Positions 13,620-35,427 of a DNA stretch of 64,000 bases are shown one piece after another. The translations under genes and the position numbers were made by a program. The notes beneath the pieces were generated by a model. The model saw nothing but the letters and a program-made list of their open reading frames with translations. It searched no databases and was not told the DNA's origin. The stretch comes from Euglena gracilis (lineage: Eukaryota): positions 37,929,703-37,993,702 of the forward strand of contig CP154954.1 of the NCBI GenBank assembly GCA_039621445.1, given 5' to 3'. Position 1 is the first letter of the stretch. Every line of letters begins with the position of its first letter.

Positions 13620-14468
13620 CAGTTTGGACAAACTTTTGGGCGAAAAACACAATTTTTTTTGCCAGGGGATGGTAACTGGCAGTCTTTTTTGGGGAGAAAA
13701 TGTTTGCAGTTGATTTTGTCGGACGGGGTGGGGTCCAGTCCGAACCCACCCCCCCACAGGGTCCGGCCAGCCTGCTGGACCCGGCGGGCGCCTCCACACA
13801 GAATAAGAGAGTCTTCGTATTTAGGCCGGCGGGGCGTCTTTGAAGAGGTATTATTTTCTATCGAAAGCTCCCAGACATTTGATGTTCTATAATCATGTTC
13901 CATTAAATGAAATATGTTCTATCATTTTCTTTCTGTTGAGCTCATCATGTCGGCCGTCCCTCTTCATGGAGTCCAACATATATCACAGCTGGTGGCAGAC
14001 AATATCTATACAAAAATCGACTGCCACTAATGGCGCCGGGCAGCCTGGCGCCTTTGGCACCTTGGGCCGCCCGGCGCCCCTGCTAAAATTGTTACTTAGT
14101 GCAGTCGATTGTTCTAAAACCTATTTCGCAGGGCCCGCATGCCTGTCTTCAGCAACCTTTAACAATTAGAAACCTATTTCAAAAATTCCCCAAAATTGGC
14201 CAAATGGAAATTGTTGCACAAAATACCCCAATATCTGGCCAAATGCCCCCAAAAACTGCTCAGATGTGATTGCCACGTGTCTACTAACCATTTTGAACGC
14301 TTTTGGGCATTTCTTATTTTCGATCCCCTAGACGCCATCTTCCCGCCCGAACCGGCGTTCTGGACGCCGGTTCGGCACAAAAATTTCTGCGCCGAACCGG
14401 CGTCCAGAACGCCGGTTCGGGCGTGAAGCCAGAGCCCCAATACGAACACCATGAAGCACAGCTGGAAT

Positions 14469-14771: not shown

Positions 14772-16028
14772 GCTGGAATCTAAAGCCATCTGCTGAAAGC
14801 CCTTGAGAACTGCTTTCGATCTGCGGGCCGAGGAGGGGGAGGGGGTGGGGGGGGACACCCCCCCACCTAAACAATTGCGCGGTCTGGGTGATCGAAAATT
14901 TTTGACCCCCCAAAACGACCAAAGGTGCCATTTTTGGCACTTTTTGGGCAAAAATGTGCCAAAAATGCAAAAAATTTTCGGCGCAAAGCACCGGAGGAAA
15001 AAAATGACCCTTTTTTGGGGGGGTCCCGGATACCCCCCTCAGGGTCGGTCCGGACCCCCTTGGCAGGTGGGGGGGGGGTGGTCCGGACCCCCCCCCCTGC
15101 GGGCCAGGAGGGGGAGGAGGGGGGGGGGACACCCCCCCACCTAAACCATGTACGCTCTCCTTACCGGAGGGATGAAAATACCGCGCAGCATTAATTACCG
15201 ATTGGATTAATTCCGCTCCTGGGCGAGCTTCCGTAACTGGCGATCTGGGCATTTTTCTGGCACGGCGGCCGGAATTAGGATCAGGCAAAAATTAATCTGG
15301 ATCGCGGAGTGCGTTTTTTCTGTCTCACAGCGTAACGATCAGGCGTCTGGCAGGCTTTATTAAAGAGCGGTATTAATCCATTCGGTATTACTACCGAGCG
15401 GCATTTTAATCCCCCCGGTGTATCAAACCCTGGTTCTGAGGGTACCAAGCGAAAGGTCTTGGGGAGAGTTTTTTGATTGACATGCTGTATGGCACCTGAG
15501 GTGTGGGATTTCACAAATTAAGATGTCAAAATTTGGAATGCACGATCGCTGAAAATAAGCGCTGTGTGCATAATGGCTAAATCCTGTGGCCATCTGTCAA
15601 AAGCCCTTGAGAACAGCTTTCGATCGATGGGTAACATGGCATCACATTTGTGAAAACTTCAATCGGCCGATCGACATCGCCATGCGCCCAAAGGAGCCAA
15701 AAATGCTCAAAAATGTTCGAAAAATGGGTATTTAGGGCGAAATTGGCCGTGATTCCTTGAACGCCGGTTCGGGCGTGAAGCGAGAGCCCCTAATCTACGG
15801 TTTCTACACACAAATTGTGGCTGAGCCCAGATTTCAGCCTGAAAACGTGTTCAGCCAGGGGGCCCCCGAAGGGGGCCCCCTGAAGACGTTTTCAGGCTGA
15901 AATCTGGGCTCAGCCACAATTTGTTTGAAAACGTGCCTAACCACAGATGCCTTAATGGAAAACGTGTCATTGCCACAGATGCCCTCATTGAAAACGTGTC
16001 ACCCCCCCCTTTCCGCAGCCTTCCCACT

Positions 16029-16886
16029 ATGGCTAAACGCACGGCTAACTTTGTGAATGGCCTTTTGCCACCTCCCCCTAGGACGGAACTGTTCCTGGCT
16101 GCTCTCGCGGTATACCAGCAAGATGCCAAGAAGCCGAAGGTTGACCCCCTTCATGGCACCTTGCTGGCACAGGGCAACACAAAGAAAAGTCCGGCTCCGT
16201 GGGAGCAGAGCTTGCTGCTGTTGCCAACTGTTTGGAGTTTGCCAAACTGTGTCAACATCGGCAAGCCTCTTATCCTGAGCTGCATGCTTTCTTTGTTGCT
16301 TGGACGGGATGGGAGCATGCTTGTGCTTACCAACCGGGGGGGGAGGGGGGGGGTGCTATAGGGTGCCTGCCCCTGGCAGGCACACCCCCCCCCCGGGGGG
16401 GACAGGGGTCCGGGCCGGACCCAGAAAATTTTCATTGAAAATGGCCCTTTCCCGGCCCCCGGCGCCTTCGGCGCCGGGGTCGGAGGGGGGTGCCTGCTAG
16501 GGGCAGGCACCCCCCAAAACCCTACCCCCCCCCCCGGGCGGGGGGGGGGTCGGATCGGGTGCTATGGGGTGCCTGCCCCTAGCACCCCCCCCCCCGTGGG
16601 GTAGGCACCCGACTAAGCGCAAGCCTGGATGGGAGCTGGAACCCAGCCTGTTGTTCGATGAGGCGAGCGTCATTGAACAATGTGTGGCTCAACGTGAGCA
16701 GCAGTCGGGAACTTTGTTCGTTTCAGGGAATCGTTCGGCAACCTCTTTTCTTCTTTGCCATTCCCAAAAATCCAAATTGTGTGGAGCTGAAAAAAGTTGT
16801 GTGTGACCTGCGGTTTGGCATATCATTTTCATTGCCAAGATTTGCGGCGGCCACCAAAGTATGGCTCTTTTTTGTGTAAAGTGTGA
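16029..16886 (+). pseudogene. Deleted and frameshifted gene: MAKRTAN...DPLH N-terminus plus C-terminal PHD finger
   Basis: 22 of 53 ungapped identities to the 31772 ORF. 16794-16886 reads KLCVTCGLAYHFHCQDLRRPPKYGSFLCKV*. One-base frameshift near 16189. Confidence 0.8.
16316..16627. mobile_element. hAT-like MITE inserted in the remnant ORF
   Basis: CATGCTTGTGCTTA / TAAGCGCAAGCCTG with perfect 8-bp TSD GATGGGAG. Confidence 0.85.
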
Positions 16887-18382
16887 CGTGTTCCGTGATG
16901 TCCGCCACTCCGTGTCGTTGTGCTCCAAGGCAACCTAGCCTTCTGTTGTGTTGTAGAGTGCCCCCGACCCACCTCACTCGTTGAGGACCACCCGACCTCG
17001 CAAGTCGCAACCACCCGCTGATTTTTCATGACACCGTTTTTTGCTTTTTACTCAGGGTTGCCACAGATGCCCTAATGGAAAACGTGAGTGAACACAGATG
17101 CCTTAATCGAAAACGTGTCATTGTCACAGATGCCCTCATTGAAAACGTGCCTAACCACAGATGCCTTAATTGAAAACGTGTCATTGCCACAGATGCCCTC
17201 ATTGAAAACGTGTTCATGACCACGAATTTCAGGGCAGGCATTTGGCGGGCTGAAAACGTTTTTAACACTGTGTCCAGAACGCCGGTTCGGGCGTGAAGCT
17301 GCGTTTCAGAACGCTGGTTTGGGCTGCCGCCCGAACCGGCGTTCTGGACACAGTTTTCGTATCAGAAACCCATACAGTGGTTTTTTTGTTGTTTTCACGG
17401 CGCCCCTCTGAAAGCCATTTAAACCGGCGTTTGAGACGCCGGGTTCAGGACAGAACCGGCGTCCCCCCCCCACGGGTTTTCCGGACGCCGGACAGAACCG
17501 GCGTCCGCCACCCCTTTTGCAGTATATGCAAACGGGCGCCTGTCTTGAAAACCGTTCGACCTTTTGTGAAATCTCTTATTTGCCTCGTCATCCTTCTTTA
17601 AAGCTGTGAAGTGTGCAATGTTCGGTGGCACTGTGTGTGGATCTCCGACATCCACCCAGCTTTGGGTGGATGTGCGAGGGCTGTCGCGGCGCTATGTAGT
17701 TGTTCAGTTTCCGTTGTGATCCTGGTTGTGATTGTGCCCTGGTGATTTTTGTCTTTTGTCTGTCACGTTTCTGTCATTAACCCTATTTCAGCTCTTGTTG
17801 AGCTCTGGGGCACCAGGTCCCCACACATTCTTTTGTGCCTTCAATTGTGGGTTCACTAGGGTGGTGACATTCGTGAAAAGTGGTCGGAAAGAAAAGTAAA
17901 AGGTCGTGAAATTTCATGAAATTTCAGGGGCCGGAAATTTCAGTCACGACCCTGGGATTCACAGATCCTTTTGTGGCTTCAATCAGTTACCAGCTGCCTA
18001 CATCCCACGGGCGCCTGTCTTGAAAACCGTTTCATACAAACGGGCGCTTGGTCTTGCAAAGCCGCCCAGAACGCCGCCCGCCACTGCGGGCCGCCGGCCT
18101 GTACGGCCTGCCTCCTCAATATGCTCCCATCCCACGTGGAAAGTGGAATGTGCCAATAGTTAGAAGCCAGCACCTTTCTTCCAGCTGGGAGTCATGGTGG
18201 TGCAAACGCAAATTGGTGCCAAATGTTTTTTTGGTATTTATCATGTTTCCAGCTAGCCTGGCACTTCCCGTTTTTAAGACATGGATCGGAGAAAGCAGTT
18301 CTTTGCTTGATGGTGAAGCAAGAAAAAACATATTGGCAGGAAATCTGTTGTTTGGGCGACATCCTGTCATGGAAGCTCCACT

Positions 18383-18670
18383 CAGGGGTTTTTTTTTTAG
18401 TCTTGGCCCCCCCCCCCCAGGGGGGGTGGGGTGGGTGGGTCCCTTGGACCCCTCCCCCCGGGGGGGGGGGGGCGGGGGGGGGAAGGGCTGGTGGGTATAT
18501 ATTTTTCGGTGCTGAAGGCCCCGAAAAATATGAAAAGGTGCTATTTTCAGCATTTTTGGACATTTTCGGGCAAAAGTGGGTGGGTCCCCTAGGGGGGCGG
18601 GGGGACACCCCAGGGGGGGGGGGGTGGATGCCGACCCCCTCCCCCCACCCCCAGTCTTAAAAAATCCCTG
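18383..18670. mobile_element. hAT-like MITE with decayed TSD
   Basis: CAGGGGTTTTT...AAAATCCCTG; flanks GCTCCACT / GTTTCAGT. Confidence 0.65.
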
Positions 18671-18976
18671 GTTTCAGTGCCAAATTTTCTGTTTGTTGCA
18701 AATTTTCTGCCATTTTGCCACTTTCTGCCCACTTGAACGTTTTTGTGAAAATCAGGGGGGGGGTGATCATGATGATGATGATGGCGACGACAAATATTAT
18801 TATTATTATTATTGTTATTGTTATTGTTATTATCATTATTGTTATTCTCAAAAAATGAGGGAATTTTTTGTTGAACCCCGGAAAGGTTTGGAGCAGGCTT
18901 CTTTAAGTGAACGTCCTTTTTTGGCCCCCCAAAACCCCCCCCCCCCCCCCCGGACCTCCTCTTCCTTAGTGCCAAA

Positions 18977-20148
18977 CGGTAGACTGGGGGGGGGGGGTAG
19001 TGGGTAGTAGGCCGACTAGTCAGCCGACTACCCAATTGGTCCACCGACTAGTCGGCCGACTAATTGGTCGGTGGCTAGTCGGCGGGGGGGGGGGGTAGTG
19101 GGTAGTCGGCCGACCAGTCGGCCGACTACCCACTCTAATGTACTAACGGGTCAAAACCGCCGACTTTTAAGCCCCCCCCCCCTGGTAAAAAAAAATGTCT
19201 AAATCACCTCAACGCCGGTCAAAACCCACCCAAATGGCTCCAGAACCCCCCAATCGGGGGTGAATATGCAAAAAAATTGGGGGAAAATGTCCATTTTGGG
19301 CCACTTTTGACAAAAGTACACCTCTCCCCATTGAATTTTCAATATAAGTCAAAATTTGCGCAAAAAAAGGGTCTTATCCCTCCAAGTCTATAGCCAACAT
19401 AGAAGGGATTTTGTTATTTGGGGGGGGGGTGTGGGGGGGGCGGAGCCCCCCCCCCGCCTATGCCAAAGTGAGCCACAAAAACGACTTAGCCCCCGAGTAT
19501 GTTGCAAACACAGAAGGGATTTTGTAATTTGAGGGGGGTGTGCGGGGGGGCGGAGCCCCCCCCCCCGCCTATGCCAAAGTGAGCCACAAAAACGACTTAG
19601 CCCCCGAGTATGTTGCCAACACAGAAGGGATTTTGTTATTTGAGTCTCGGATTGGGGTGGAGGGGGGAGTTTTCTGCCTCTCGTGATGCAAAACGCAGAT
19701 TGCAGATTGCATTTCTAAAGGATTTTAATGTAATCCCTGTTTCATCATTGGTTTTTTACCCCTCCGGACCCCCATCAAGGGCCCACCGACCCCCCATTGA
19801 CCAAAGATTTCCATCTGGGGGTGTTTATTTAGGCGTAAGACACTTATTTGGACCCATCCGGACCATTTCCGGGTGATTTGGGCCCGCCACAGACCATTTT
19901 TATGACCGCCGACTAGCCACCGACTAGTTTGCATTGGATTTTGTTCATGGGGGGGGGCTTAAAAGTCGGCGGTTTTGACCCGTTAGTACATTAGAGTGGG
20001 TAGTCGGCCGACTAGTTGGCCGACTACCCACTACCCCCCCCCCCCTGTCTCGCCGACTAGCTACCGACTAGGACTAGTCGGTGGACCAATTGGGTAGGCG
20101 GCCGACTAGTCGGCCGACTACCCACTACCCCCCCCCCCCAGTCTACCG
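18977..20148. mobile_element. Long-TIR non-autonomous element, same family as 12539
   Basis: ~200-bp TIRs, CGGTAGACTG...CAGTCTACCG. Confidence 0.8.
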
Positions 20149-20280
20149 CCTTGCGCCCTCTTCCTTCCCTTTTTGGGGGTGGGTGCAGGGCACCCTCCCT
20201 CTTAAAAAAAGAACACTTCCCTTCTTTCCGGCTTTATCCCAAAGTGCCTTGCATTCACCTCCCCCCCCCCCGTCTCACAG

Positions 20281-20903
20281 TTCCGTGGCTGCTGGTGGTG
20301 GCTGGTCCCCCTCCTCACCGCCATCGGCGCCGCCAGCTGGACACGCAGGGCGGCGCTGTGAAAATGGTCAGTTCGGGGGTGGCCAGGCGATTTCCCTTCG
20401 GGAATGCACCCACAAAAACTGGGCGATGAGGATTTTCTCACAAAAGAAATCCCCCCCAACCCTGGTTGGTGAACATGTGGTAACCCCAAACGTATTTCTC
20501 AGTGCAAAGTGGCAAATCTTCTCTGCGGTGTTTGTCCTCCCTGATAGGTAGTTGCAGATCCCTAACAGACCCATTTTGGGTTTTGGCCAGAAGCAGGGGT
20601 TTCTTTTTAATCTTGGACCCCCCGGGGAGGGGGTAGGTGGCCCCCAGGGGAATATTTTTGAAAAGGTGCTATTTTCAGCATTTTTGCGATTTTTAGCCAT
20701 TTTTGGGGAAAAGTGAGTGGGTCCCCTGGGACCTCCCCGGTCTTTTAAAAAAACCCCTGGCCAGAAATGTCCACCGAGGAATGGCGCACCCCTGCCGCAG
20801 ATCTCGCCCATCGACAGCAGCCTGGCCAACACGTTGGCGTGGGCAGCGGTGGCCAGCACCTACGGCTGGCTGTGGGTGGACTACCTCCGCCCACGGCTGC
20901 TGG
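20281..20903 (+). pseudogene. Two-exon fragment of a hydrophobic protein nested antisense in the RRM intron
   Basis: Exons 20281-20342 and 20800-20903 with GC-ending codons. AG precedes the first and GT follows the second. They join in frame as FRGCWWWLVPLLTAIGAASWT-ISPIDSSLANTLAWAAVASTYGWLWVDYLRPRLL. Confidence 0.45.
20594..20759. mobile_element. hAT-like MITE
   Basis: CAGGGGTTT...AAACCCCTG; flanks GCCAGAAG / GCCAGAAA. Confidence 0.8.
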
Positions 20904-21069
20904 GTGCCGCGCCGCTGCCCATGCTCCGCGGTTGGGGGGCTTTTGCCCTGGGTGTATGGTCTTGAAAACCGTTTTTTTGGGAACGGTTTCTGCTAAAACC
21001 GGTTAATGTCAGTCGATTTTCAAGACAGGTGTCGGGTGAGATTTAAACACATATGGACTTTTCGTGAAC

Positions 21070-22010
21070 TCTGATACGAAAACTGTGTCCAGAACGCCGG
21101 TTCGGGCGTGAAGCCGTGTTCCAGAACGCCGGTTCGGGCGGCAGCCCGAACCGGCGTTCTGGACACAGTTGTTGAAACCGTGGATTAGGGGCTCTGGCTT
21201 CACGCCCGAACCGGCGTTCAAGGAATGCAGGCCAATTTCGGCCTAAATACCCCCCCCCCCTAATTGACCGTGGGACCTCTCCAGGGGACCCCCCTTTTGG
21301 TCAATTGGGGGGGGTTCAATTAGGGGGGGGGGGTTGGTCAATTAGAAGGGGGGTACCGTCAATTAGGGGGTGCTTCAGCACGGAATCCCCCCGGGTAGTC
21401 AATTAGGGGGGGGGTGAAAAAATTTTCCCCGGGGCGTTTGGTCAATTAGGGGGGGGGGGAGGTGGTACCCATTTTTCGAACATTTTGGAGCATTTTTGGC
21501 TCCTTTGGGCGCATGGCCATGTCGATTGGCCGATTGAAGTTTTCACTGGTCTGGTGCCATATCACCCATCGATCGAAAGCTCTTCTCAAGGGCTTTTGGT
21601 AGATGGCCACAGGATTCAGCCATTATGCACACAGCGCTTATTTTCAGCGATCGTTCATTCCAAAATTTGACATCTTAATTTGTGAAATCCCACACCTCAG
21701 GTGCCATACAGCATATCAATTGAAAGCTCTCGCCAAGACCTTTCATTTGGTACCCTCAGAACTCAGCTACACTGCAGAGCACTCTGAAAATCGGCGATCG
21801 CAATTTCCGACCCTGTTTGCAAAGTCGAAATTCCTATGTTTCACCAGCAATGTTGCCCATCGATCGAAAGCTCTTCTCAGGGGCTTTCAGCAGATGGCCT
21901 TAGATTCCAGCCGTGCTGCATGGTGTTCTACTTCAAAAATTCCCCAAATTTGGCCAAATGGAAATTGTTGCACAAAATACCCCAATACCCCCCAAAAACT
22001 GCTGGCCAAA
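21070..22010. repeat. Dispersed repeat family rich in GAACCGGCGT and CGATCGAAAGCTC motifs
   Basis: Collinear copy at about 34232-35190 and an inverted, interrupted copy at about 14173-17370. Confidence 0.8.
21250..21465. mobile_element. Tc1/mariner-type MITE with TA TSD
   Basis: TIR CCCCCCTAATTGACC. The uninterrupted site CCTAAATACCCATTTTTCG is present on the reverse strand near 15718-15737. Confidence 0.85.
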
Positions 22011-22047
22011 AAAGCCCTCAAAAAAGTTTGCCCAAAGGTCTCTAGTA

Positions 22048-24002
22048 CAAAAAAGAGGTGTCGGACGCCGGTTCTGTCCAAAGCCCGGCGTTCCAAACGC
22101 CGGTTCCGTCCTTCGGACGGAACCGGCGTTTGGAACGCCGGGCTTTGGACAGAACCGGCGTCCGACACCCCTTGTTTAAAGCGGCGTTTTAGAGACGCCG
22201 GGCTCAGGACAGAACCGGCGTCCCCACCCTTCGGGCAAAGGACACTCCCGGGACCAATCTCCGACCACTGATCTGCAATGTCACACCACTTTGCACTTCA
22301 CCAAATTCCGGCGATCGCGAGGGTATTTCTGGCTGTGTCAATCGTCCAGGTATAAAATCACCCCTCGATCGAAAGCTCTTTTCATCAGACGACTGGCGAT
22401 CACCACCAAATTCAGCGACGCCGCCTGGCTTATTTTCTGTCAGTGGGGAATCCTAATTTCACAACTCTGGTGCCCCCCCAAGGCCCTCAGGTCGTTGATT
22501 CGAAGAGGAAAAACGTTTCTGTAAGGTTTATTAAGCATCTTAAACCAAAAATCGCTGAAAATTGCGACAAATTTCGACTCAGATTCTGGCCGATCCGACG
22601 ATCGCGAGCGTATCTCGGGCTGCGTGCAACGTCAGGGTACCAAGTTACCCCTCGATCGAAAGCTCTTTTCAACAGACGACCAGCGCTGCTCATTAGATCT
22701 TTCCACGCTGCACGGTACTCTATTTCCAAATCTGGGCCAATTTTCACCAAATTTGGATATCCACCCCAGTGGTCCCCAGATGGCAAAATTCATTGTCCTT
22801 GATGGTTGAAACACTCATATCACCACCTTAGGGCCACTTTTGGGCACTTTTGGTGCTTTTAGGAATGAAAATCGGACGCCGGGCTTTGGACAAAGCCGGC
22901 GTTCCTAACGCCGGGCTTTGGACAGAACCGGCGTCTGGAAGCCCGTGGGGGGGGACGCCGGTTCTGTCCTGAGCCCGGCGTCTCAAACGCCGGCTTAAAT
23001 TTTTTTGCACTGCGCCCCAAAAATACTTGCACTTTGTTCCAAAAAAATTTGCACTTTGCCATTTAAACCGGCGTTTGAGGCGCCGGGTTCAGGACAGAAC
23101 CGGCGTCCCCCCCCACGGGTTTTCCGGACGCCGGTTCTGTACTAAAACCCGGCGTTAGGAACGCCCGTTTTGTCCAAAACCCGGCGTCCGGTTTTCATTC
23201 CTAAAAATGTCACCAAAAGTGCCCAAAGTGACCCCAAGGTGCTGGTATGAGTGTTTCAACCATCTAGGACAATGAATTTTGCCATCTGGGGACCACTGGG
23301 GTGGATATCCAAATTTGGTGGAAATTGGCCCAGATTTGGAAATAGAGGACCGTGCGGCGTGGAAAGATCTGATGAGCACCGCTGGTCGTCTGTTGAAAAG
23401 AGCTTTCGTTCGAGGGGTAACTTGGCACCCTAACGTTGCACACAGCCCGAGATACGCTCGCGACCGTCAGACCAGCCAGAATCTGAGTCGAAATTTGTGG
23501 TTATTTTCAGTGATTTTTGGTTTAAGATGCTGAATAAACCTTACAGAAACGTTTTTTCTCTTCGAATCGACCACCTGAGGGGTCCTGGGGGGTACCAGAG
23601 TTATGAAATTAGGATTTCCCAGTGACAGAAAATAAGAGCTCCAGGCGGCGTCGCTGAATTTGGTGGTGATCGCCAGTCGTCTGATGAAAAGAGCTTTCAA
23701 TTGAGGGGTGAGTTTGTACCAGGACGATTGACACAGCCAGAAATACCCTCGCGATCGCCGGAATTTGGTGAAATGCAAAGTGGCGTGACTTTGCAGATAA
23801 GTGGTCGGGGATTGGTCCCGGGAGTGTCCTTTGACCGAAGGGTGGGGACGCCGGTTCTGTCCTGAACCCGGCGTCTCTAAAACGCCGCTTTAAACAAGGG
23901 GTGGCGGACGCCGGTTCTGTCCAAAACCCGGCGTTCCGGACGCCGGTTCCGTCCGGAACGCCGGGTTTTGGACAGAACCGGCATCCGCCACCCCTTGTTT
24001 GA
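22048..24002. mobile_element. Foldback element, about 1.95 kb with ~0.95-kb inverted arms
   Basis: For example 22241-22350 is the reverse complement of about 23719-23828. Centre near 23000-23065; TA at both ends. Confidence 0.85.
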
Positions 24003-24556
24003 TACTTTTGTCCAAAAAAAAAGCCTTACACAATAGGTACACTCCGGTTGAAGTTTAAAAAGGCAATTGTGCAAAACACCCAATCCAAGGGCAAAAAAAT
24101 TCGGAACGAATGCTTTTGGAATGTGCAACCATTTTTGAGGAAAAGTGCGAACAAATTGGTGGTATGTGCAAACATTTTTGAGATTAAGTGCAAGAAAATT
24201 GACCGGAAGTGTAAAAGCATGCGGAGCGAAGTGCAAAAAAATTCGGTTGTTTGGTGTAAAAAATATTTTCTTAAAAAGGTATGTTTTTAAAAAAAACAAA
24301 AACAAACCGTCAACCTTGGCACTCGGCCGACTACCCACCACCCACTCCCCCTCCCAGTCGACTGTCTGGCACCCGTGCCGACCCCTCCCCCCTGTCCCTC
24401 CAATATGAAACACCCCCTCGGGAGCCAAAATCCTGAGGACGTTGCAGCTATGCCATGGTGTGGGGAATCGGTCTCAGCCAAAGCCCCCCCCCCCCCGCCG
24501 GCAAGGGGGTGCATGGGTGCATGTGGGGGGGGGTGGACAACTGCAATGGTCTGGTC

Positions 24557-24695
24557 CAAATCCTTTGCTTTGCCCCGTCACTGTATTCCGCCAAACAGTT
24601 AAAGACGATACCACACCGTAAATTTCAACAAGGTTTCGCAAATCTGCTTCATGATAAGACAATGGAAGGTTCCGAATGAAGACGTTCTTGTTCAT
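24557..24695 (-). CDS. RRM protein exon 1 (MNKNVFIRNLPLSYHEADLRNLVEIYGVVSSLTVWRNTVTGQSKGF); ELAV/CELF-like two-RRM protein
   Basis: RNP2 VFIRNL and start of RNP1 KGFG. ATG lies 7 nt after an acceptor-like TTTTCCTTTGCAG. Confidence 0.9.
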
Positions 24696-24702
24696 AACCG
24701 CT

Positions 24703-24720
24703 CTGCAAAGGAAAATGCAA
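24703..24720 (-). promoter_or_regulatory. Splice acceptor (cis or spliced-leader trans) upstream of the RRM start codon
   Basis: TTGCATTTTCCTTTGCAG|AGCGGTTATG. Cis and trans use cannot be distinguished from DNA. Confidence 0.5.
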
Positions 24721-27275
24721 GAATAGTTTTTTGTGTATTTTTGGGGGGTTTACACGTGCGATTTTGTTGATTGAACAAACAACGGTACTTGCCAGCGCAC
24801 GACGGACCCACCCTTTCGATTATCGCACAACGCCCTTTGAACGGCCAGAATCCTCTCCCTTGGGGTCCGTTTCGGCCATTTTGGGTGGTTTTTGTGGTTT
24901 CCATGACCCCCTCCCAAGGGGGGTCACTTAGTGGGGGGGGTCGGAAAACAAAAACTTGATATCACCCCCACCTTTTGGGGGGGAGGGAATTTTTGTGTGA
25001 AATTCGTGACCTACACCATTTCCCCATCAGGTCAAAAATTTCGGAAAATTCTTCAAAAAAAGAACTCTTTTATGACCATTTTAGCTTACGGAAAATATTA
25101 TGCATGTTCCAGCCGGACCCCGGAGGACCACTTAGGGGGGGGGGTTCGCAAAAAAGGCGAAGTGTTCGCAATTACAACTCCTGACCCTAACCCTGTTCCT
25201 CCCAACAACCCTATACAGTCAATGGAAGAGGAAAAGAAGACGTCGTGCGATAACCGAAAGGGGGGGTCCGTCGTGCGATAACAGACAAGTACCCAAACGA
25301 CATCTTTGGCCGACACCTTTGGCCCCAGCAGCAACACCCGGGCAGATCCCTTATGGGGACAAACTGTCAGTGGGCTTTATCTTTCTTCCTCCCTGCCTTG
25401 CCACCTTCCCAAAACCATCGCCAAAAGGGAATTTCTTAAGGACCCCCCGGGGGGGGGGGGATCCAGCCTCCGGCTGGCAAAAAGGCTGCTGGCAGCCAGC
25501 AGCTCAAATCCAGCCAAGCAGCCCAAATTCGGGCTGGGAGCCTCCCCCCCCCCCAGGGGTCGAGTGAAATAAAGTCGGGTCCAGCCCGGCCGGAGGCCGG
25601 GCCAGCCGGCCACAGGCTGGCCAGCCAACTGGGCTGCCCAGCTCACTTATCCCTGCATTTTTCCCCTCACCACAGCCCCTCCATCACAGCCCCCCAGCCT
25701 TGATCTAGCTCCACCCATCAAAATGTCGAAGATGGCAAAAATTTGTTAGAAAAATTTGTTTTTCCTCGACCAGCCCTCCAGCACCGGACCCCCTCCCCCC
25801 CACCCCCCCGGCGGGGGGGGGCAGCCATACCCTCCCCCCCCCAAAATAAGCCCCCCCCCCCCCCTGGGCCGATCAAGGAAAAATCCAAAAATAAGACCCC
25901 TCCTCATAAAAAAAGACCCCTTGATCCCCCTTGCCGTGGACGGTGAAAGTTTTCCCTGAAAATGACCAAAAACCCCAATTTCATGCACATGAAATTTCCA
26001 AAGTTTTCAGATTTTTGAAGTGGGGGGGTCGTTCTGCCCTGGGGGGGAGGAGGGGGAGGGAGGGTGGTCCCGGACCGTCCGTCGCAGGAGATTTTTTTCC
26101 CGGTCAGCAAGCGCCGGCAACCACCGTGCAGCCGCTGCAAGTGGTGGTCCTGTGCCAGTGCATCCACACCGGGGGGGGGGGAGCGGGCTCCCACGCCAGC
26201 GCCCGCGCGGGGGAGGCCATTCATTTTGATTGATTCATTCGTGTGGCTACAAATGTCTAGTTCATTTTGATGAAGAGAACTGGCAAGAAAACGCTTGGTG
26301 CCTCATCTTCATCTCCTTTTTCCACCCAAGCCGAAGCGTGCATACGCGCAGCAGCTCACCCCCCCCCCCCCGGCCGGCCGAAGGCCGGTCCTGACCGACC
26401 CTCCCCATATAACACCCCCCCCCATATAAGACCCCCCTGGGATTTTGGCTCCTGAGGGGGGGTCTTATATGGGGGGGGGGCATGGTAGGCTGACAACGAC
26501 ACCTGCCCTGGTGCGTTTTTATTCCACATTTGGACAGCAAGGACCTGTGGCAATTGACGTCACTATTTGGCACACCCAAGCAATCCTCTTGGCCGTGCCA
26601 ACCAACTTCAATCAGGGCAAGGGAAGGCTGACAAACACCGGAGAATTGATGCCGCTTGCACAAGACGCGGTTGGCGCCTCACTGCCTTTGTGCTTGATTG
26701 CTTCGGGGGGGCTGGGCACAGAGGGCATCCCATGGACTAATTGTCGAACGTTGTTCAAGACAGGCGTGCGGGCCCTGCAAAATAGGTGTTAGACAAATCG
26801 ATTGCACTAACAGTTTTTAGCAGGGGCGCGCCGGGCAGCCTGGCGTCTTCAGCACCTCGACACCGACCGGCACCTGCTAAAACCGTCAATGACAAGTCAA
26901 TTATTGTACCATGCCCCCCCCCCCCGAGCTATTCCCGTCGTCCCTGGGTCCCTTTACAGTCCAATGGAGGTAGGCACAGGTGGGGTACATGAACGGTGCA
27001 CGCCGGTTACCATCCCCCCCATTATGTACCCCCCCATCATGTACCCCCTGGGGGGGAGGTACATAATGGGGGGGGGATGGTAGCTCACTGTCATAACACC
27101 TTTTCTAAAGAATTTCCCAAAAAAATGCTCAAAAATCGGTGTTTTTGGGACGTTATCAAAAAGTGATATTAGGCAAATGGGCTGAAAATTGACCATTTAT
27201 TGCAACCATCCAAAAAGTTGCCAAAAATGACCCCTTTTGTGCTGTTCGGTCGGGTCTGGGAATGGGACCTGGGTA

Positions 27276-27457
27276 CCACCCCCCCCCCCCTTTATTGTCC
27301 CCCCCCCTTATTGTCCCTGGGCCCCGGCCGACGGGAGGTTTTTTGGGCCCGGCCAATGAAATTCCTTTGGTACCCCTTTATTGTCCCCCCCCCCCTTTAT
27401 TGTCCGGTCGGGCCTCCCGGGGGCAGGTCGGTGGGACAATAAAGGGGGGGGGGGTGG
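27276..27457. mobile_element. TA-flanked MITE; inverted copy at 29094-29273
   Basis: TIR CCACCCCC...TTTATTGTCC. Confidence 0.8.
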
Positions 27458-27459
27458 TA

Positions 27460-27938
27460 CAGTCCCTAGCCGTAAATTGTCCCCCCCCGAAAATTCCCCC
27501 CCCCTGAAATTTGGGAATTTTCCTGGTTTTGCAAAAGGCTCCGAAACGGGCGAAACCCCCCCCCCCCTTCAGCCCCAGAGGAACAGCTAAGTCAGGTGGG
27601 TTGGGACTTTTTTTTGTACATGCAAGGGCAGCACAGCTTCACCACTTGCATGGCCCCTGGGTCGAGGACTTGGCATCCTTTGGGTTTTTTTGTCCATTGA
27701 ACCATCCCCGGCATGTATCTATCAATAAGACCCACCGCCCTGAATAGAGGCGTTCGGGAATATACCATAACAACCCCACAACATACGGCAAATGAATTCC
27801 GAATCCCGGTCGGCTTCATGGCTTCAAAGAATAGAAGGGACGGGACAAAGTGCCCGAAACGGCCGAAAATTTCCCCCCCCTTGGTCAAGAGCCCAAAAAA
27901 CCCTCCCTAGGGGGGGGAAAATTTACGGCTAGGGACTG
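27460..27938. mobile_element. Tc1/mariner-pogo-type MITE
   Basis: TA-CAGTCCCTAGCCGTAAATT ... AATTTACGGCTAGGGACTG-TA. Shares a TA with the preceding MITE. Confidence 0.85.
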
Positions 27939-30900
27939 TACCCCCCCCATTGTGTACCTCCCCCCCATTATGTACCTCCCCCCCCCCCAATTTCGGCCTC
28001 CCGGGGGGAGGTGCGGGGGGGGGATGGTATATTTATCGCACTCTCACTCAAACTCACCCAAGCCCTGAAATCAGACCCGGAGCTTGAGACCATAACGGCT
28101 CCAAGATGTGGTGCGCGTGGACGCGGGGGGCAGCTTGACTCGTGGTTGCTGCTCTTTGCATGTTCACAAAAGCGGCACTGTATGGCTCCTCACCTGCACG
28201 AGCAACACCGTTCATCTCTTCGGCTGCCTTGATTCCATTGGCAGGTTGAACGTCCATCCCATTGCAGTGAGAAACACTGTCCGCCGCTTTGTGGGCAAGT
28301 TTGCCATCATGTGTGAGGCAGCGAGCAGCATAACTACACACGCAACAATGTGGAGTGTCGACAGAAGGAGATTGCGAGACCATAGCGCAGGGATTGCATT
28401 CCTTCGTGCAACATGCAGAAGGTGATGTCTGAGGGCCTACAAGTGGACCTACAAAACACCTTCAATGCAATTGATTGGCAAGCTGTGCTTCATGTGCAAA
28501 AAATGGACCAAAATCATCTTGTGAGGTAAAATTGTGGGTGTTTTTCTTGCATAATTGGAATTTGCAGGAGGGAAAACAAATGCACTTCTTGCAGTTTTTT
28601 TTTGTGTATTTCAATTTTGGAAAGTTTTGTGTTTGTGTTTTGTTTTTTTGCGCTTTTGCGCTTGCGCTTTGTAACGCCTTGCCGAAGTAACCGAAGTAGA
28701 CGTTGGAATGTATCATCGTTGTGCGGCATGTGTGCTTGGAGGCAAAAGTTTTGGGGGGTCGGCACACCCCTCCCCCCCCCCTCACCGACCCCCTCGCCAC
28801 GCCATTTTACCCCCCCCTCCCCCCCCTTTTCAGACCCCCTCGCCACGCCATGTCAGGGGGTCCCAATCGGATGATTGTCCCCAGTTGTCTGGTCGAAAAT
28901 TTAAATCATCTGTTGGTCAGATTTGGTAATTCAGCAGCCATGTTGCCAAAAACTTTTTCCAAGCCTTTTCAATAGATGACCACAGAATTCACCGCCCTGT
29001 ATAAATGCACATGAGATGTGTTGCACAAAAACACCAATTTCATGCAAATTGGCCATTGTGCAAAGAAACAAACTGTAATACAACGGAATGGTACCACCCC
29101 CCCCCTTTATTGTCCCACCGACCTGCCCCCGGGAGGCCCGACCGGACAATAAAGGGGGGGGGGACAATAAAGGGGTACCAAAGGAATTTCATTGGCCGGG
29201 CCCAAAAAACCTCCCGTCGGCCGGGGCCCAGGGACAATAAGGGGGGGGGGACAATAAAGGGGGGGGGGTATGGTAAACTGAACGGCATCCACACCCTTGG
29301 GCTCTATGCTGAAAATCACCAGGCCAATCAAAGCTGGCAAACCCCCCAAAAAAGCCCCCCAAAACACCTTCTTTGCGTTTTTTTTTAATTCAAAAAAGCA
29401 AAAAAAAAACGCCAAAGGGTTCAAAGGAAAATCTTTTTTGAATAACAATTTTGTCAGGATTATATCCAACCCACCATCACATCTTTGGGATGTCTTTTGG
29501 CCATTTTTGAAAAAATTCGTTTTTGGTGTGAAACTGTACCAGTTTTTTTTCCATGAATCTTTGGGTGTCTTTTCCATAGAAAAAGGTGCATGATAGAGAG
29601 CTATTCCCAGCTTGGGGGAGCTTGGGCTTGGAATCTTGGGGGAGAGCTCGGGGAGGGGATGCCACCCTCTAATTCTCTGACGCAGATCCTTGCAAAATGT
29701 CCACAAGCAAAGATATCCCCCAAACCGTCAAGACTCTGCTGGCAGAATTTTCAAAGCACCTCGAACAGCATCATCACAGTATGTTGGTGTTTCTATTTCC
29801 TCTCCATGCCCCCTCCCTGAGCTATTCCCTCCCGTGAGCTATTCCGGTGGTGGAACACTTTTTTGGAGGGAAATATGGAAAAATTGCCCCAAGCCGAGAC
29901 AATGGAGATTGGGCATTTTATGTCCGAAAATGGCCATCTTTGGTCATTTTTTTTGGGCCTCAAAAAAGTAGTGATTTTTTAGTGATTTTTTTTTCTTGGG
30001 AAGCTAGGCACAGTGGGGGGGGGAGGGGGTGGTCGAAGGGGGGCAAGCGGCCATGCGGGGGGTCCCGGACCCCCCCCTCCCGAGTGGCACGCCTAGCCCC
30101 CAATGACCACCCTCACCCCCAAAGCGTCCCCCCCCAAAGTGGCCAAAAGCTTTGGCAAATTTTGGTTTACGCCCTCAAAGTGGGCGTTTTCCTTCGGCAC
30201 TTTTGGCGCCGAAGGCCAAAATTTGATCTCGCCCTCCTCAGAGTGGCCATTTTGGGGTCCCATGGTGCCTGGAGGGCCATTTTAAGGGGGGGGGTGAGGG
30301 TATTGTGGAGAACTCTTCATTTCTCATGGAAAATATATTTGCAGCAAATGGCTAACCCCAGGGTTGACGTTTTTTTTGTTTTTTTTAAAAAAAACAAAAA
30401 AACATGTTTTTTTTAAAAAAAACGCAAAAAAAACATGTTTTTTTTGAAAAAGAAAAAATTGACCGTTTTCCTTGCGAAATGACCATTTTTTTGAAGAAAT
30501 TTTTTCGCGGGTGGTTCGGGTCACGAGGGGGGGGTCACGGGGGGGTCACAGGGGGGGGGGGTCACGAGGGGGGGTCACATTTTTGGTGGCCAGATTAGAA
30601 ATCACCGAAAACGAAATTTTTGGGGAAAAATCCTTTTTAAGCTGGGTGGACAGGCGCAATTGTTGCCGCGTCGGGTGTGCGTAAAACGCAGCAGTTACCG
30701 CCCGGGAGGCGCAAAATAGAAAATTGGTAACGGACGCACAAAAGAACGTCCTTTTTCGGACATTTTCGGCCGAAATCGGCTGCGCCGGCGCTGCAAAACG
30801 AGCGCTCTGCCCCGGCTAGAGGTCGGCGATCCTTTACATGATTGTTGCGAAGGGCGGCGGGTGAACAGGCGCAATTTTGCCCGAGTCGGGTGACCCAAAC

Positions 30901-31205
30901 CATACTTCAAATCCCACTATGTTCAAAAACTTCCAAAAAATGGCCAAAAAACATCCAAAGTGCAAAAAAAATGCAATTTTATAATTTTTATTATGTTTTT
31001 GTGGAAGGAAGTTTTTGGCAGAAAAAATGACTTCTCGTGGACGTTTTTTGTGCTTTTTAAAAAATGGTTAAAAATAAAAAACAACAACAAAAAGCAAAAA
31101 TCAAGTTGCCAACTATGATGCCAGGGAGACAAAACAATTTGAATGGGAAAATATTTTTCCCGCAAATTCTGGACAAAATTTTGTTCAGGATTTTCCCACC
31201 ATTTC

Positions 31206-32428
31206 TATATAAAAATCGTGGGCATAACCCGTATACAGGCCGTATAACGGGTCAAGGGCGCCGTAGGCGCCCTTGACCCGTTATACGGCCTGTATACGGG
31301 TTATAGCCCACAATTTTTCTGTAACCGTTAATTAAGAGGCCCGGCGCCTGCCCTGTATTTCGTTGATGTGCTTCACGCCATGGTTTCGGGCACTTTTGGG
31401 GCGTTTTTTTGCCCAAAATTTTTAAAAAATCCAATTCACGAAATACAGCCTGTATTTCGTGAATACCCAATTCACAAATACAGCCTGTATTCGTGAATTG
31501 AAAATAACGCCCTGTATTCCGTGAATAGAAACCAAAATGTGAAAACATTGTCCAGATGACCTGGAACACATTGATAACACACCCCTGGTCCTGGAAAACG
31601 AGATATGGATGTAAGGCCAAGTTATAGGGGGGCACTTTGAGGGTGGGGGGCGGCGCCGAAGGCGGCCGGTCCCCCCGCAAAGGCCCCCCACAATGCTTTT
31701 CGTTTTTAGAGCTTTTTAGTGCTATTTTCGCACCTTCACCCCGTGTTTCTCCTCACTCTGTTCTCCAAAAAATGGCGAAGAAAGCGGCAAACACCATGGA
31801 CAGAATGTTGACACAACCCCCAAAAGTTGCTGAATTTTTGGCCACAATTAAGCAGGGTTGGGAGAACAGAAAGAACCCTGCTATTGACCCCCTGCACGAT
31901 GACCTTCTGCTACAGGCTGCCAAAAAGAAAGCGTCCGGAATGGCAGGGACAGAGCAATCCGCATTTGCTCACCTCCTTGAAATCGAGTGCAGTGCGATGC
32001 TTGTTCCCTTTCATACCACTGGCGTTGTGTGCATTTATGCCATGAGCCCAAACATGGGTCATGGGTGTGTCATTCGTGCAAACCTCGTTAGCTTTCCCGG
32101 CGTAAATCCACGGCACTTTGCTATCTGACGTTGCACTAGTTGTGCACCGCCTTCATTTATCACCTAGGACATGCCATTCAATTTTCTTTTGCTTTGTGCA
32201 TTTGGTTTTATTCTGAATTACTTCAGACGATGTGATGCAAGAAGGTTTCTAGTTTCAGAAGCTGTTATAAAAACAAAAAAAATACAATTCACGAAATACA
32301 GCCTGTATTTCGTGAATACCCAATTCACAAATACAGCCTGTATTCGTGAATTGAAAATAACGCCCTGTATTTCGTGTTCACACCCACGAAATACAGGGCA
32401 GGCGCCGGGCCTCAATTCACGGTTACAG
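31206..32428 (+). mobile_element. Hairpin-terminated element with PHD-protein remnant, copy B
   Basis: Foldback at 31206-31323 with a perfect 39-bp core stem and GTA loop. ~87-bp direct repeats at 31432 and 32285. Subterminal inverted repeat 31319-31362 / 32387-32428. Ends are approximate. Confidence 0.7.
31772..32091 (+). pseudogene. Internally deleted gene: MAKKAAN...DPLH N-terminus joined out of frame to a PHD finger
   Basis: 31987-32091 reads VQCDACSLSYHWRCVHLCHEPKHGSWVCHSCKPR*. The N-terminus is homologous to the 16029 ORF. Confidence 0.82.
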
Positions 32429-32550
32429 GAGCTATTAGCGTTTTTCCTGGCAAATTTAAGAAAATCTAATTTCGTCCATTGAACGCCCAAAAGTTATCTG
32501 GTGCTTCGATTCTTGGAATGCATTTTTGTTCCAAAACAACTGTTAGACCG

Positions 32551-33010
32551 CAGAGGGGGGGGGGAAACGCGTTTCGCATTTTTTCGCATTTTTGCGCATT
32601 TTTTGCGCATTTTTTCAAATTTTCCAAAAATGCGCATTTTTGCGCATTTTTTCGCATTTTTTGCGCATTTTTTTGTTTTTTTTTCAGCACATTTTTTTGC
32701 TTTTTGGCACATTTTTTCGTGATTTTCCAAAATTTTCGCATTTTTTGACCATTTTTGCAATTTTTTGCAAAAATTTGAAATTTTTGACTTTTTTTGAAAC
32801 GTACATTTTCCTCATTATTCCATATAATTTTTTCAAATTTGGTGCCATTTTTGCATGTTTTTTGGGTGATTTTTGCATTTTCGTGATTTTTGCGCATTTT
32901 TCCTCGGATTTTGCACATTTTTGCGCATTTTTTCCAAAAATGCGCATTTTTTGCGCATTTTTGCGCATTTTTTCCGAGGCCGGGCGAGCGCATTTCCCCC
33001 CCCCCCCCTG
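32551..33010. mobile_element. CAG...CTG MITE filled with GCGCATTTTT repeats
   Basis: CAGAGGGGGG...CCCCCCCTG flanked by TAGACCG (7 bp visible). Confidence 0.7.
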
Positions 33011-34028: not shown

Positions 34029-35427
34029 TAGGGCTGCATAGAGGTAGAGGTAGAGGTCAAAGGCCTCTACCTCTTTGTCAACCACCTCTACCTCTACCTC
34101 TACCTCTATGTCACCTCTATGTCTGTAAAATGTACCAAAATGGCCTCAAAAAGGGTCATAAAACACCCCATCTGCTCGGAAAATGGCAATTTTGCATGAA
34201 AACACATGCAAAACGGCGAGGGGATGAGAAACTGATACGAAAACTGTGTCCAGAACGCCGGTTCGGACCACGGAACTGTGTTCCAGAACGCCGGTTCGGG
34301 CGGCAGCCCGAACCGGCGTTCTGGAACACAGTTCCGTGGTCCGAACCGGCGTTCTGGACACAGTTGTTGAAACCGTGGATTAGGGGCTCTGGCTTCACGC
34401 CCGAACCGGCGTTCAAGGAACCCAGGCCAATTTCGCCCTAAATGCCCATTTTTCTAACATTTTGGAGCATTTTTGGGCTCCTTTGGGCGCATGGCCATGT
34501 CGATTGGCCAATTGAAGTTTTCACAGATCTGGTGCCATGTTACCCATCGATCGAAAGCTCTTCTCAAGTGCTTTTGGCAGATGGCCACAGGATTCAGCAA
34601 TAATCCACACAGCGCTTATTTCCAGCGATCGTGCATTCCAAAATTTGACATCCTAATTTGTGAAATCCCACACCTTAGGTGCCTTACAGCATATCAATCG
34701 AAAGCTCTCGCCAAGGCCTTTCATTTGGTACCCACAGAACTCAGCTGTACTGCAGAGCACTCTGAAAATCGGCGATCGCATTTTCCGACCCTGTTTGCAA
34801 AGTCGAAATTCCGATGTTTCACCAGCCATGTTGCCCATCGATCGAAAGCTCTTCTCAAGGACTTTCAGCAGATGGCCTTAGATTCCAGCCGTCTGCATGG
34901 TATTCTATTTCAAAAATTCCCTAAATTTGGCCAAATGGAAATTGTTGCACAAAATTCCCCAATATATGGCCAATTACCCCCCAAAAACTGCTCAGATGTG
35001 ATTGCCACATGTCTACAAAGCATTTTGAACATTTTTTGGCACTTTTAATTTTCGGTCCCCTGGACGCCATCTTCCCGCCCGAACCGGCGTTCCAGAACGC
35101 CGGTTCGGCGCAAAATTTTCGGCGCCGAACCGGCGTTCTGGAACGCCGGTTCGGGCGTGAAGCCAGAGCCCCAATACACGGTTTCAATATGTGGGTTGGT
35201 GATTTTGAAAGTTGTTGGCGCAGTTATGTTACCACATTGAGCAATTCTGAAAACCTTTGTATGTATTTCTTCTTTGCTAGCAAAAAAAATTCCTTTGTTG
35301 AGTCATTTTCCTTTGGTTTTTGACATAGAGGTGACATAGAGGGATAGAGGAGGTTGGAAAACCTCTACCTCTACCTCTACCTCTACCTCTACCTCTACCT
35401 CTATCCCTCTACCTCTATGCAGCCTTG
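34029..35427. mobile_element. hAT-like element with (GAGGTA)n subtermini and a nested repeat
   Basis: TAGGGCTGCATAGAGG / CCTCTATGCAGCCTTG flanked by ATTGTAC. Confidence 0.7.

Follow-up and report, generated by a model that had tools for sequence, protein, structure and literature searches.

Two internally deleted loci of a probable tyrosine-recombinase element family with long palindromic ends in Euglena gracilis

Two loci with a common anatomy lie in a 64,000-nucleotide (nt) stretch of the Euglena gracilis genome (NCBI GenBank assembly GCA_039621445.1, contig CP154954.1, positions 37,929,703 to 37,993,702 of the forward strand), which was analyzed as a whole and is referred to here as the window; it is eukaryotic DNA, rich in repeats, with a G+C content of about 50%. 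Each of these loci, called copy 1 and copy 2 below, carries a long foldback at its left end, arrays of direct repeats and remnants of an open reading frame (ORF), and we consider both to be, probably, derivatives of a mobile element that encoded a tyrosine recombinase. A preliminary description of the window, made from the sequence alone, had already pointed to the layout shared by the two loci, and foldbacks, direct arrays, ORF remnants and right-end cores were indeed recovered in both. The features of the two copies, in window coordinates, are as follows.

15807 to 15927, plus strand: copy 1 foldback (palindrome) with a C-GAA-G loop, supported by self-complementarity and by its folding z score
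15925 to 15999, plus strand: copy 1 left array, 2.4 units of about 32 nt, beginning with the inverted-repeat tip TTGAAAACGTG
16029 to 16190, plus strand: copy 1 ORF piece 1, recombinase N terminus of 54 amino acids (aa), stopping at a private 1-nt deletion in a run of A
16193 to 16306, plus strand: copy 1 ORF piece 2, 38 aa (...FAKLCQHR...FFVAWT), 54% identical to residues 55 to 91 of the relative P0012 (E = 1e-10)
16307 to 16626, no strand assigned: nested GC-rich palindromic insertion in copy 1, 310 nt plus one copy of the 10-nt duplication GGATGGGAGC
16627 to 16803, plus strand: copy 1 ORF piece 3, 59 aa (GWELEPSLLFDE...SATSF, followed by the deletion junction), 46% identical to the relative P0016 (E = 1e-10)
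16791 to 16883, plus strand: copy 1 PHD-like half finger (C-x2-C-x4-H-x2-C-x13-C), behind a second frameshift
17058 to 17213, plus strand: copy 1 right array, 4.9 units in direct orientation
17209 to 17263, plus strand: copy 1 right end, with the core CGTGTTCA..CCACGAA..CAGGGCAGGC followed by the right inverted-repeat tip (...GAAAACGTTTTT)
31211 to 31317, plus strand: copy 2 foldback with a C-GTA-G loop
31319 to 31370, plus strand: left terminal inverted repeat of copy 2, immediately behind the foldback
31424 to 31523, plus strand: copy 2 left direct-repeat block of 100 nt
31772 to 31987, plus strand: copy 2 ORF piece, recombinase N terminus of 72 aa up to the deletion junction
31981 to 32088, plus strand: copy 2 PHD-like half finger (C-x2-C-x4-H-x2-C-x13-C-x2-C), in a different frame from the N terminus
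32277 to 32376, plus strand: copy 2 right direct-repeat block, a direct repeat of the left block
32379 to 32428, plus strand: copy 2 right terminal inverted repeat, pairing with 31319 to 31370

The most conspicuous of these features are the foldbacks. In copy 1, the 48-nt arms are 96% complementary and the central 25 nt, which hold the GAA loop, are themselves palindromic; as single-stranded DNA, this segment folds at -72.3 kcal/mol (z = -16.9), and 0 of 200 shuffled sequences were as stable. The copy 2 foldback, with 52-nt arms that are 88% complementary, reaches -62.8 kcal/mol (z = -16.2; again 0 of 200 shuffles). Foldbacks of some 115 nt with a GNA loop had been proposed for both loci, and this holds, with lengths of 107 to 121 nt and loops of the form C-GNA-G. 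Equally accurate was the observation that the same array returns in direct orientation beyond the ORF: the 29-nt unit of copy 1 is present seven times (15938 to 15998 and 17058 to 17212), the blocks at 15925 to 15999 and 17139 to 17213 are 99% identical and the two 100-nt blocks of copy 2 are 98% identical. The arms of the copy 1 foldback also contain the array motif specific to its family. As for the right-end sequence reported to be common to the two loci, CAGGGCAGGC was found three times in the window against an expected 0.15, namely, at both right ends and, in inverted orientation, in the left inverted repeat of copy 2, and a 31-nt core pattern built around it matches, within the window, the two right ends only.

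Three elements could be added to the earlier picture: the terminal inverted repeats of copy 2, a nested 320-nt insertion in copy 1 and the assignment of a 23-nt repeat flanking copy 1 to a host element, family H (the latter two are discussed below). The inverted repeats of copy 2 are about 50 nt long, with 35 nt matching at 94% and 18 nt at 89%; copy 1 has a shorter form of their tip. The inner part of the right repeat of copy 2 also pairs with the last array unit in a 15-bp stem (32362 to 32376 with 32385 to 32399; z = -6.4), a small right-end hairpin that was not significant in copy 1 (z = -1.2). In summary, the anatomy common to both copies is far beyond chance.

The stretch from 15500 to 32700 was overlaid with the contigs of two DNA runs (X1 and X7) and the raw reads of two RNA runs (X21 and X24). 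Sampled words of the window between 26000 and 35000 were found, at fractions of 0.60 to 0.68, in 14 public DNA runs of one organism, and contig pieces from other copies were 89 to 91% identical to the window. One such contig, 166 nt long and 91% identical, covers positions 31303 to 31468, beginning within the foldback arm, crossing the inverted repeat and ending in the array; the three parts are therefore contiguous in another copy as well. Summed contig word depth, which is not a copy number and is readable only as "very many copies," amounted to 0.68 to 1.3 million over copy 1 and approximately 90,000 to 130,000 over copy 2; as both lie far above the least repeated bins (approximately 740 to 1,240), the depth suggests a very high copy number for the element family.

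Between the arrays of both copies lie the remnants of one protein-coding gene. The N termini align without gaps, as had been stated, with 22 invariant residues in 54 aligned columns (E = 9e-10 by tblastn within the window, compared to 3e-5 for the PHD-like pieces). No third copy was found by tblastn within the window; weak matches near 53.5 to 53.8 kb and 17.6 kb were taken as chance (E ≥ 0.02). The start codon of the recombinase ORF lies about 250 nt from the left array, making this ORF the first in the element. Similarity was also expected to continue past the frameshift of copy 1, and piece 2 bears this out (see its match to P0012 above). The A that is missing behind position 16184 is present in 36 contigs of X1, which make up 300,135 of 582,449 depth, as well as in 22 X7 contigs and 19 of 25 X24 reads, and since the extra A joins the first frame to the second in these other copies, the first frameshift is private to copy 1. 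A joint leading from 16306 directly to 16627, which skips 320 nt with 10 letters that fit both sides, occurs in three contigs per DNA run and in 3 and 15 RNA reads; because other copies thus lack it, the 320-nt block is a nested insertion with a 10-nt duplication, private to copy 1, and pieces 2 and 3 share a frame once it is removed. A CG insertion after 16806, found in a minority of the DNA depth and about half of the RNA reads, does not by itself connect piece 3 with the frame of the PHD-like finger.

The nested insertion itself is MITE-like (miniature inverted-repeat transposable element), with imperfect terminal inverted repeats (GCTTGTGCTTA and TAAGCGCAAGC) in addition to its 10-nt duplication, and the bin that holds it has the highest summed depth over copy 1. 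Loose ends of poly(G) or poly(C) in RNA reads are abundant at similar blocks (16353, 18459 to 18482 and 18934).

A PHD finger had been assigned to both loci, and this claim stood in part. The C-terminal half of the finger is recognizable in both, as shown by the match between the copies. The Pfam PHD profile (PF00628) yielded E values of 0.0078 and 0.0013, with 16.7 and 19.1 bits against a cutoff of 24, and the matches cover only profile positions of about 14 to 47 of 47, i.e., the C-terminal two-thirds. Of the full C4HC3 signature, the first Cys pair was not seen in either copy, and copy 1 lacks the last Cys as well; the upstream Cys pair was probably encoded in the part that has been deleted.

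With the two N termini as a profile, an exhaustive HMMER search of 1.84 billion representative proteins returned 25 proteins at an E value of ≤1e-3. Two long repetitive proteins (P0003 and P0018) were set aside as spurious. Among the 23 that remained were P0012 (395 aa) and P0025 (313 aa), and a follow-up profile search added P0038 (439 aa), P0041 (357 aa) and P0026 (476 aa). No match came from the N-terminal alignment in a word-based search of 5.8 billion proteins that was restricted to longer lengths; scans of metagenome contigs (with profile A6 and protein P0021) and of viral contigs gave pattern matches, none of which was confirmed by tblastn. P0001 and P0004 are products of Euglena gracilis transcripts, and the other relatives come mainly from ENA and JGI metagenome contigs of 1 to 2 kb. 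P0001 is identical to the ORF of copy 2 at 106 of 110 positions (96%), including the deletion junction and the out-of-frame tail, which indicates that this deletion derivative is transcribed. The database entries for three relatives (P0026, P0039 and P0040), on contigs of 1 to 1.9 kb, name the carnivorous plant Genlisea aurea as the source of these hypothetical proteins; the sequences are probably protist DNA in the Genlisea aurea assembly rather than plant genes.

Alignment to these relatives gives a simple account of the remnants. The pieces in the window are collinear with residues 1 to about 140 (copy 1) and 1 to about 72 (copy 2) of relatives of 357 to 476 aa and then jump to the PHD-like tail (pairwise E values of 1e-10, 1e-10 and 2e-8; tblastn of P0012 against the window, 9e-14). 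P0016 and P0021 are further deletion derivatives, with different breakpoints and both ending in the same PHD-like tail. The proposal that the two loci are independent internal-deletion derivatives was thereby upheld. In the longer relatives, the N-terminal domain continues into a second domain with conserved motifs, and no remnant of this catalytic domain was detected anywhere in the window by tblastn with 11 relatives; it is absent from both copies.

This second domain points to a tyrosine recombinase. An AlphaFold model of P0038, with a mean predicted local distance difference test (pLDDT) score of 76.2, was compared with the PDB by Foldseek and produced 27 matches at an E value of ≤1e-3, of which all those listed are tyrosine recombinases. 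The match to Cre (E = 2.3e-5; probability, 1.0; TM-score on target length, 0.61) extends over about 400 aligned columns, and XerH, the Tn1549 integrase and XerA were matched as well, as were QRICH1, Flp and lambda Int at weaker E values. In the model, both the N-terminal helical core-binding domain and the C-terminal catalytic domain are covered. The faint resemblance to a tyrosine-recombinase core-binding domain noticed in copy 1 at the outset was therefore well founded, as the stretch quoted then falls in what is predicted to be the N-terminal helical domain of these Cre-matching proteins. The Pfam profile Phage_integrase (PF00589) matched 5 of 24 family members below the cutoff (best E, 5.9e-4), always with the Arg-box end of the profile, and the nearest ESM Atlas cluster is labeled "ALOG/Phage integrase" (score, 0.98; 197 of 256 shared features). 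The motifs G(F/L/I)RxE, GxMK(N/Q)L, TFKDV(A/G)RRAAMTR and NT(V/I)xVYH are conserved in every sequence that reaches them, and WLFRT also lies in the second domain. Candidate catalytic residues are Arg (GxRxE), Lys (GxMKNL), Arg-Arg (KDVxRR) and Tyr (VYH), conserved in nine, nine, four and four sequences, respectively.

Besides copies 1 and 2, the window contains a noncoding family, here called H, that is characterized by the motif GAACGCCGGTTCGGGC and has a layout like that of copy 2: a leader, a foldback, inverted repeats of about 50 nt and internal arrays of about 130 nt. Elements of this family were found at 34232 to 35189, 21071 to approximately 21220 and 14306 to 14450 and, in two parts, at 15600 to 15806 and 17268 to 17365. 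The features that matter here are the following.

34232 to 35189, plus strand: reference H copy, with a 12-nt leader, a foldback (34244 to 34363), a left inverted repeat from 34364, arrays and a right repeat ending at about 35189
15600 to 15806, minus strand: H body and left inverted repeat, reversed, with the repeat tip adjoining the copy 1 foldback, as shown by alignment to the 34-kb and 21-kb H copies
17268 to 17365, minus strand: foldback and 12-nt leader (TTTTCGTATCAG) belonging to that H element itself, adjoining the right tip of copy 1

An H foldback lies beside each of the exactly three occurrences of the 12-nt leader in the window, and a 23-nt H motif has nine matches in the window, compared to zero expected. 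The right terminus of H is not fixed by its two right ends, which diverge from each other 11 nt short of the tip. The repeat tips of H, copy 1 and copy 2 can be aligned, with eight invariant columns among seven ends and the consensus T(T/C)TG(A/T)AA(A/C)CGT, and because of this alignment we read the three families as one putative superfamily, of which H is probably a nonautonomous member.

The split H element shows where copy 1 was inserted. An intact H junction reads ...ACGGTTTC-AACAA-CTGTGTCC..., while the joints of copy 1 read ...ACGGTTTC-TACAC-ACAAATTG... on the left and ...ACGTTTTT-AACA-CTGTGTCC... on the right, with ACA at both. Copy 1 was thus inserted exactly between the repeat tip and the foldback of H, with a loss or duplication of at most about 1 nt, and these joints imply that the unit that moved extends from the foldback through the right repeat tip and that no target sequence was duplicated. 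The 23-nt direct repeat flanking copy 1 was considered as a target duplication and rejected, being the inverted-repeat motif of H that recurs in the H hairpin arm. This nested pattern fits site-specific recombination. At copy 2, the flanks contain no significant repeat (best local match, 20; shuffle mean, 15.5; shuffle maximum, 24), and the left flank ends with the tip-like sequence CCACCATTTC.

On these grounds, we propose that both loci are nonautonomous internal-deletion derivatives of one family of tyrosine-recombinase elements, moved by a recombinase acting in trans, an explanation that we consider probable. The ORF of the parent would encode a Cre-like N-terminal helical domain of the core-binding type, followed by the catalytic domain, with the PHD-like zinc finger at the 3' end of the coding sequence. 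Having kept the first 72 to 140 codons and the PHD-like tail and lost the catalytic domain, the copies in the window would be incapable of recombining DNA alone and would have to be mobilized in trans, with the recombinase supplied by an intact family member. In cis, the ends would consist, from left to right, of the palindrome of 107 to 121 nt, an inverted repeat, the family-specific direct arrays on either side of the ORF and the right inverted repeat. The recombinase would excise the element, or copy it, into a circle, in which right repeat, palindrome and left repeat would form one long inverted repeat, a much extended version of the usual shape of a tyrosine-recombinase core site. The circle would then integrate by conservative site-specific recombination at the junction of repeat tip and palindrome, a reaction that should leave no target duplication and favor look-alike junctions in related elements. 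In a circularized copy 1, the right tip would meet the element's own foldback, giving the same "tip | foldback" configuration that H offers as a target, and both observed joints are what conservative exchange between the two would be expected to leave. The arrays, which differ completely between subfamilies, as does much of the N-terminal domain, would be candidate accessory binding sites for the recombinase, together with the copies of the array motif in the palindrome arms, and would covary with that domain. Mobilization in trans, the circle, the crossover point and the role of the PHD-like finger are all inferred.

Several observations weigh against this explanation. The argument from nested insertion is a single case, and at the flanks of copy 2, no crossover sequence in common and no recognizable related element were seen. 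On the protein side, the canonical His of HxxR is absent (the sequence is K-D-V-A/G-R-R instead) and the second His is not conserved; all PF00589 matches stay below the curated cutoff, and sequence-profile searches of the PDB gave 0 matches at an E value of ≤10, the first profile lacking the catalytic columns. Confidence in the P0038 model falls below 50 at residues 363 to 403, around the Tyr, and a first model, of P0026, was poor (pLDDT, 54.9). Furthermore, the relatives that extend past the putative catalytic Tyr (P0038, P0041 and P0026) end without a PHD finger. The finger may therefore have closed a longer isoform or else a second ORF, and further genes, possibly including one for a reverse transcriptase (RT), may have been present in the parent. 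No full-length element with its ends was recovered, and it is through homology of the N-terminal domain alone that the catalytic domain is tied to the termini. Finally, left and right arrays are 98 to 99% identical within a copy, compared to roughly 10% divergence between copies; simple conservative recombination does not predict such near-identity, and it is here that a replicative step, possibly through RNA, is hinted at most clearly.

Instead of a DNA-only element like a Crypton, the parent might have been a DIRS-like retrotransposon, with a recombinase and an RT/RNase H, whose derivatives had lost the catalytic part and the RT genes, whose last ORF ended in the PHD-like tail and whose integration from a circle was again the work of the recombinase. 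We think this rather unlikely. The recombinase would belong to the same broad type of eukaryotic enzymes, the nearest Atlas cluster carries an ALOG domain, a domain linked to DIRS1-type recombinases, and with full-length recombinase relatives that end without PHD, a further ORF is plausible. What is set out in the consulted portions of two reports agrees with this: DIRS-like elements with phage-like tyrosine recombinases are described in Euglena gracilis itself (bioRxiv 10.64898/2026.05.21.726589) and elements of this kind with recombinases are described in kinetoplastids (PMC6681497), thus within Euglenozoa; and near-identical terminal repeats within copies that differ from each other are the pattern that reverse transcription yields (PMC6681497). 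A circular intermediate, with a junction that would be a long palindrome, would be a further feature in common with DIRS, Ngaro and VIPER elements. However, no RT or RNase H remnant was present among the ORFs of the internally deleted copies or in the parts of the window examined, although no search was aimed at RT. The repeat scheme is also a different one, matching neither that of DIRS1 (inverted terminal repeats plus an internal complementary region) nor split direct repeats, and the recombinase ORF comes first in the element, whereas it is not known to be the first ORF in the layouts of DIRS, Ngaro and VIPER.

Rolling-circle transposition was another option raised in the preliminary description, which named Helitron2/Helentron-like elements; the end layout agrees with that suggestion, while the protein evidence does not. 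Read on the minus strand, copy 2 and H display all three end features published for Helitron2, as given in passages of PMC3627910, a further point against our explanation: asymmetric inverted repeats, of which the 5'-terminal one pairs with bases downstream of it in a 5' hairpin (32362 to 32399) and the subterminal 3' one lies directly upstream of the 3' hairpin, and no target duplication. Internal tandem repeats are likewise shared with this group (Helitron2, Helentron, HINE and DINE-1), and excerpts of PMC4067079 describe Helentron derivatives with tandem repeats, some of which encode a protein on the opposite strand. Rep and helicase would then come from elsewhere, and the recombinase/PHD ORF would be captured cargo. 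Yet the only ORF, retained by two subfamilies that cannot otherwise be aligned at the DNA level, is homologous to tyrosine recombinases through its N-terminal domain and not to an HUH Rep or helicase, no RepHel fragment was seen in the window, and the presence of the same cargo in two diverged subfamilies and in metagenome relatives points to the element's own gene. The dimensions differ as well, with inverted repeats of about 50 nt against the reported 8 to 15 nt and a hairpin of 107 to 121 nt against a few tens, i.e., three to five times the reported sizes, and we regard this option as very improbable. Least credible of all, and barely worth entertaining, are ordinary cut-and-paste inverted-repeat or MITE-like elements served by a DDE transposase, with the foldback an unrelated neighboring repeat and the ORF a passenger or host fragment. 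Clear terminal inverted repeats of about 50 nt in copy 2 and H, together with subterminal repeats, are typical of several DDE superfamilies, but neither copy has a target-site duplication, the subterminal arrays are direct rather than inverted and no DDE-like ORF was found. Nor does the foldback look like a neighbor by accident: it stands directly beside the left inverted repeat in copy 1, in copy 2 and at three H left ends in the window, its arms carry the family-specific array motif and it moved into H together with copy 1. The initial judgment that these are no simple transposons with terminal inverted repeats and target-site duplications was therefore sound.

Among known systems, the tyrosine-recombinase derivatives proposed here come closest in mechanism to Cryptons, the tyrosine-recombinase DNA transposons known from Goodwin 2003 and Kojima & Jurka 2011. 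Both are eukaryotic elements whose own gene is a two-domain tyrosine recombinase, and QRICH1, found among the fold matches of the P0038 model, is presumably a domesticated Crypton. According to passages of PMC3212892 and PMC9977147, Cryptons are thought to integrate through recombination of a short terminal sequence with a near-identical target, without duplication, and insertion by a terminal motif into a look-alike target is described as observed in Chlamydomonas (PMC9977147); the single nested case here, with ACA at both joints and no target-site duplication, resembles this. The definition given in PMC3212892, as far as its passages on ends go, has no inverted repeats or long direct repeats and only terminal direct repeats of 4 to 6 bp. 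Our elements have inverted repeats of about 50 nt, a palindrome of 107 to 121 nt, direct arrays of 75 to 100 nt and a PHD-like finger, and the His of HxxR is replaced. The proposed mechanism is thus the same in kind as Crypton insertion, while the ends fall outside the Crypton definition.

A search of open-access full text, a scope to which Repbase and paper supplements do not belong, turned up no described element in which a tyrosine recombinase and a PHD finger occur together with inverted repeats and a long palindrome, nor any of this kind from Euglena. The palindromic end structure is accordingly undescribed for such elements in the literature searched, and we see the elements as a variant of the Crypton/DIRS type.

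A long palindrome beside a tyrosine recombinase has a parallel in bacteria. At integron attC sites and the attP site of CTX phage, a tyrosine recombinase acts on an imperfect palindrome of about 60 to 140 nt, with crossover at the foot of the stem and insertion next to the palindrome of another unit, and both integron integrases and XerCD (on CTX) are able to use folded hairpins. The resemblance is a functional analogy and not one of membership: what the two have in common is a palindrome at one end of the unit and a tyrosine recombinase that goes with it, but those systems are bacterial, and a single-stranded substrate, conserved extrahelical bases and an attI-like platform are not evidenced here. 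C-GNA-G triloops are among the most stable DNA minihairpins, a property that would be consistent with the palindrome having been selected to extrude or fold. It is possible, although we advance it with considerable reserve, that these elements form an unrecognized eukaryotic superfamily in which a palindrome of about 110 nt, extruded or folded into a hairpin with its hyperstable C-GNA-G loop, serves as the recombination site, as a eukaryotic counterpart of integron attC or CTX attP, and that this superfamily, with H and other noncoding derivatives, has colonized much of the giant Euglena genome, its PHD-like finger steering integration to particular chromatin. Should the palindrome indeed act in folded form, eukaryotes would have a first counterpart of the hairpin recombination seen in integrons.

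No class of eukaryotic mobile elements is understood as poorly as the tyrosine-recombinase DNA transposons, whose ends, normally cryptic, make them hard to annotate. With a palindrome, inverted repeats and putative binding-site arrays as large, recognizable cis elements, this family would be a tractable system in which to ask how such an enzyme selects and cleaves its sites in a eukaryote. The family could also account for part of the unclassified repeat load of Euglena, and a repeat tip beside a long palindrome would provide a simple handle for annotating thousands of noncoding derivatives.

A few other features of the window were noted in passing. A large inverted structure of another family (motif GGACGCCGGTTCTGTCC) occupies 22040 to 24005 and contains two long foldbacks, one at 22040 to 22186 with 72-nt arms and a TTC loop (GAA on the opposite strand) and one at 23887 to 24005 with 56-nt arms; a CCCCTTGTTTAAAGCGG-like sequence, resembling the repeat tip of the superfamily, flanks both. 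Immediately to the right of copy 2 lie tandem arrays of the type (GCGCATTTTT)n, with units of 10 to 11 nt (32565 to 32700 and 32875 to 32973). To its left, the repeat at 30424 to 30997 has by far the highest summed contig depth of the overlaid stretch (9.7 and 14.6 million), and many joints there step back by about 205 to 209 nt, which suggests a tandem or satellite-like high-copy unit. By comparison, 29276 to 29849 is among the few low-copy stretches and has an RNA depth of about 9.5 in run X21; loose ends at 29778, seen in 140 reads of X21 and 41 reads of X24 with a consistent continuation (0.99 to 1.0), resemble an exon boundary in an expressed host gene. Finally, a degenerate CCCTAA-like tandem array with periods of 24 and 60 nt, located at 47607 to 47752, may be an interstitial telomere-like repeat.

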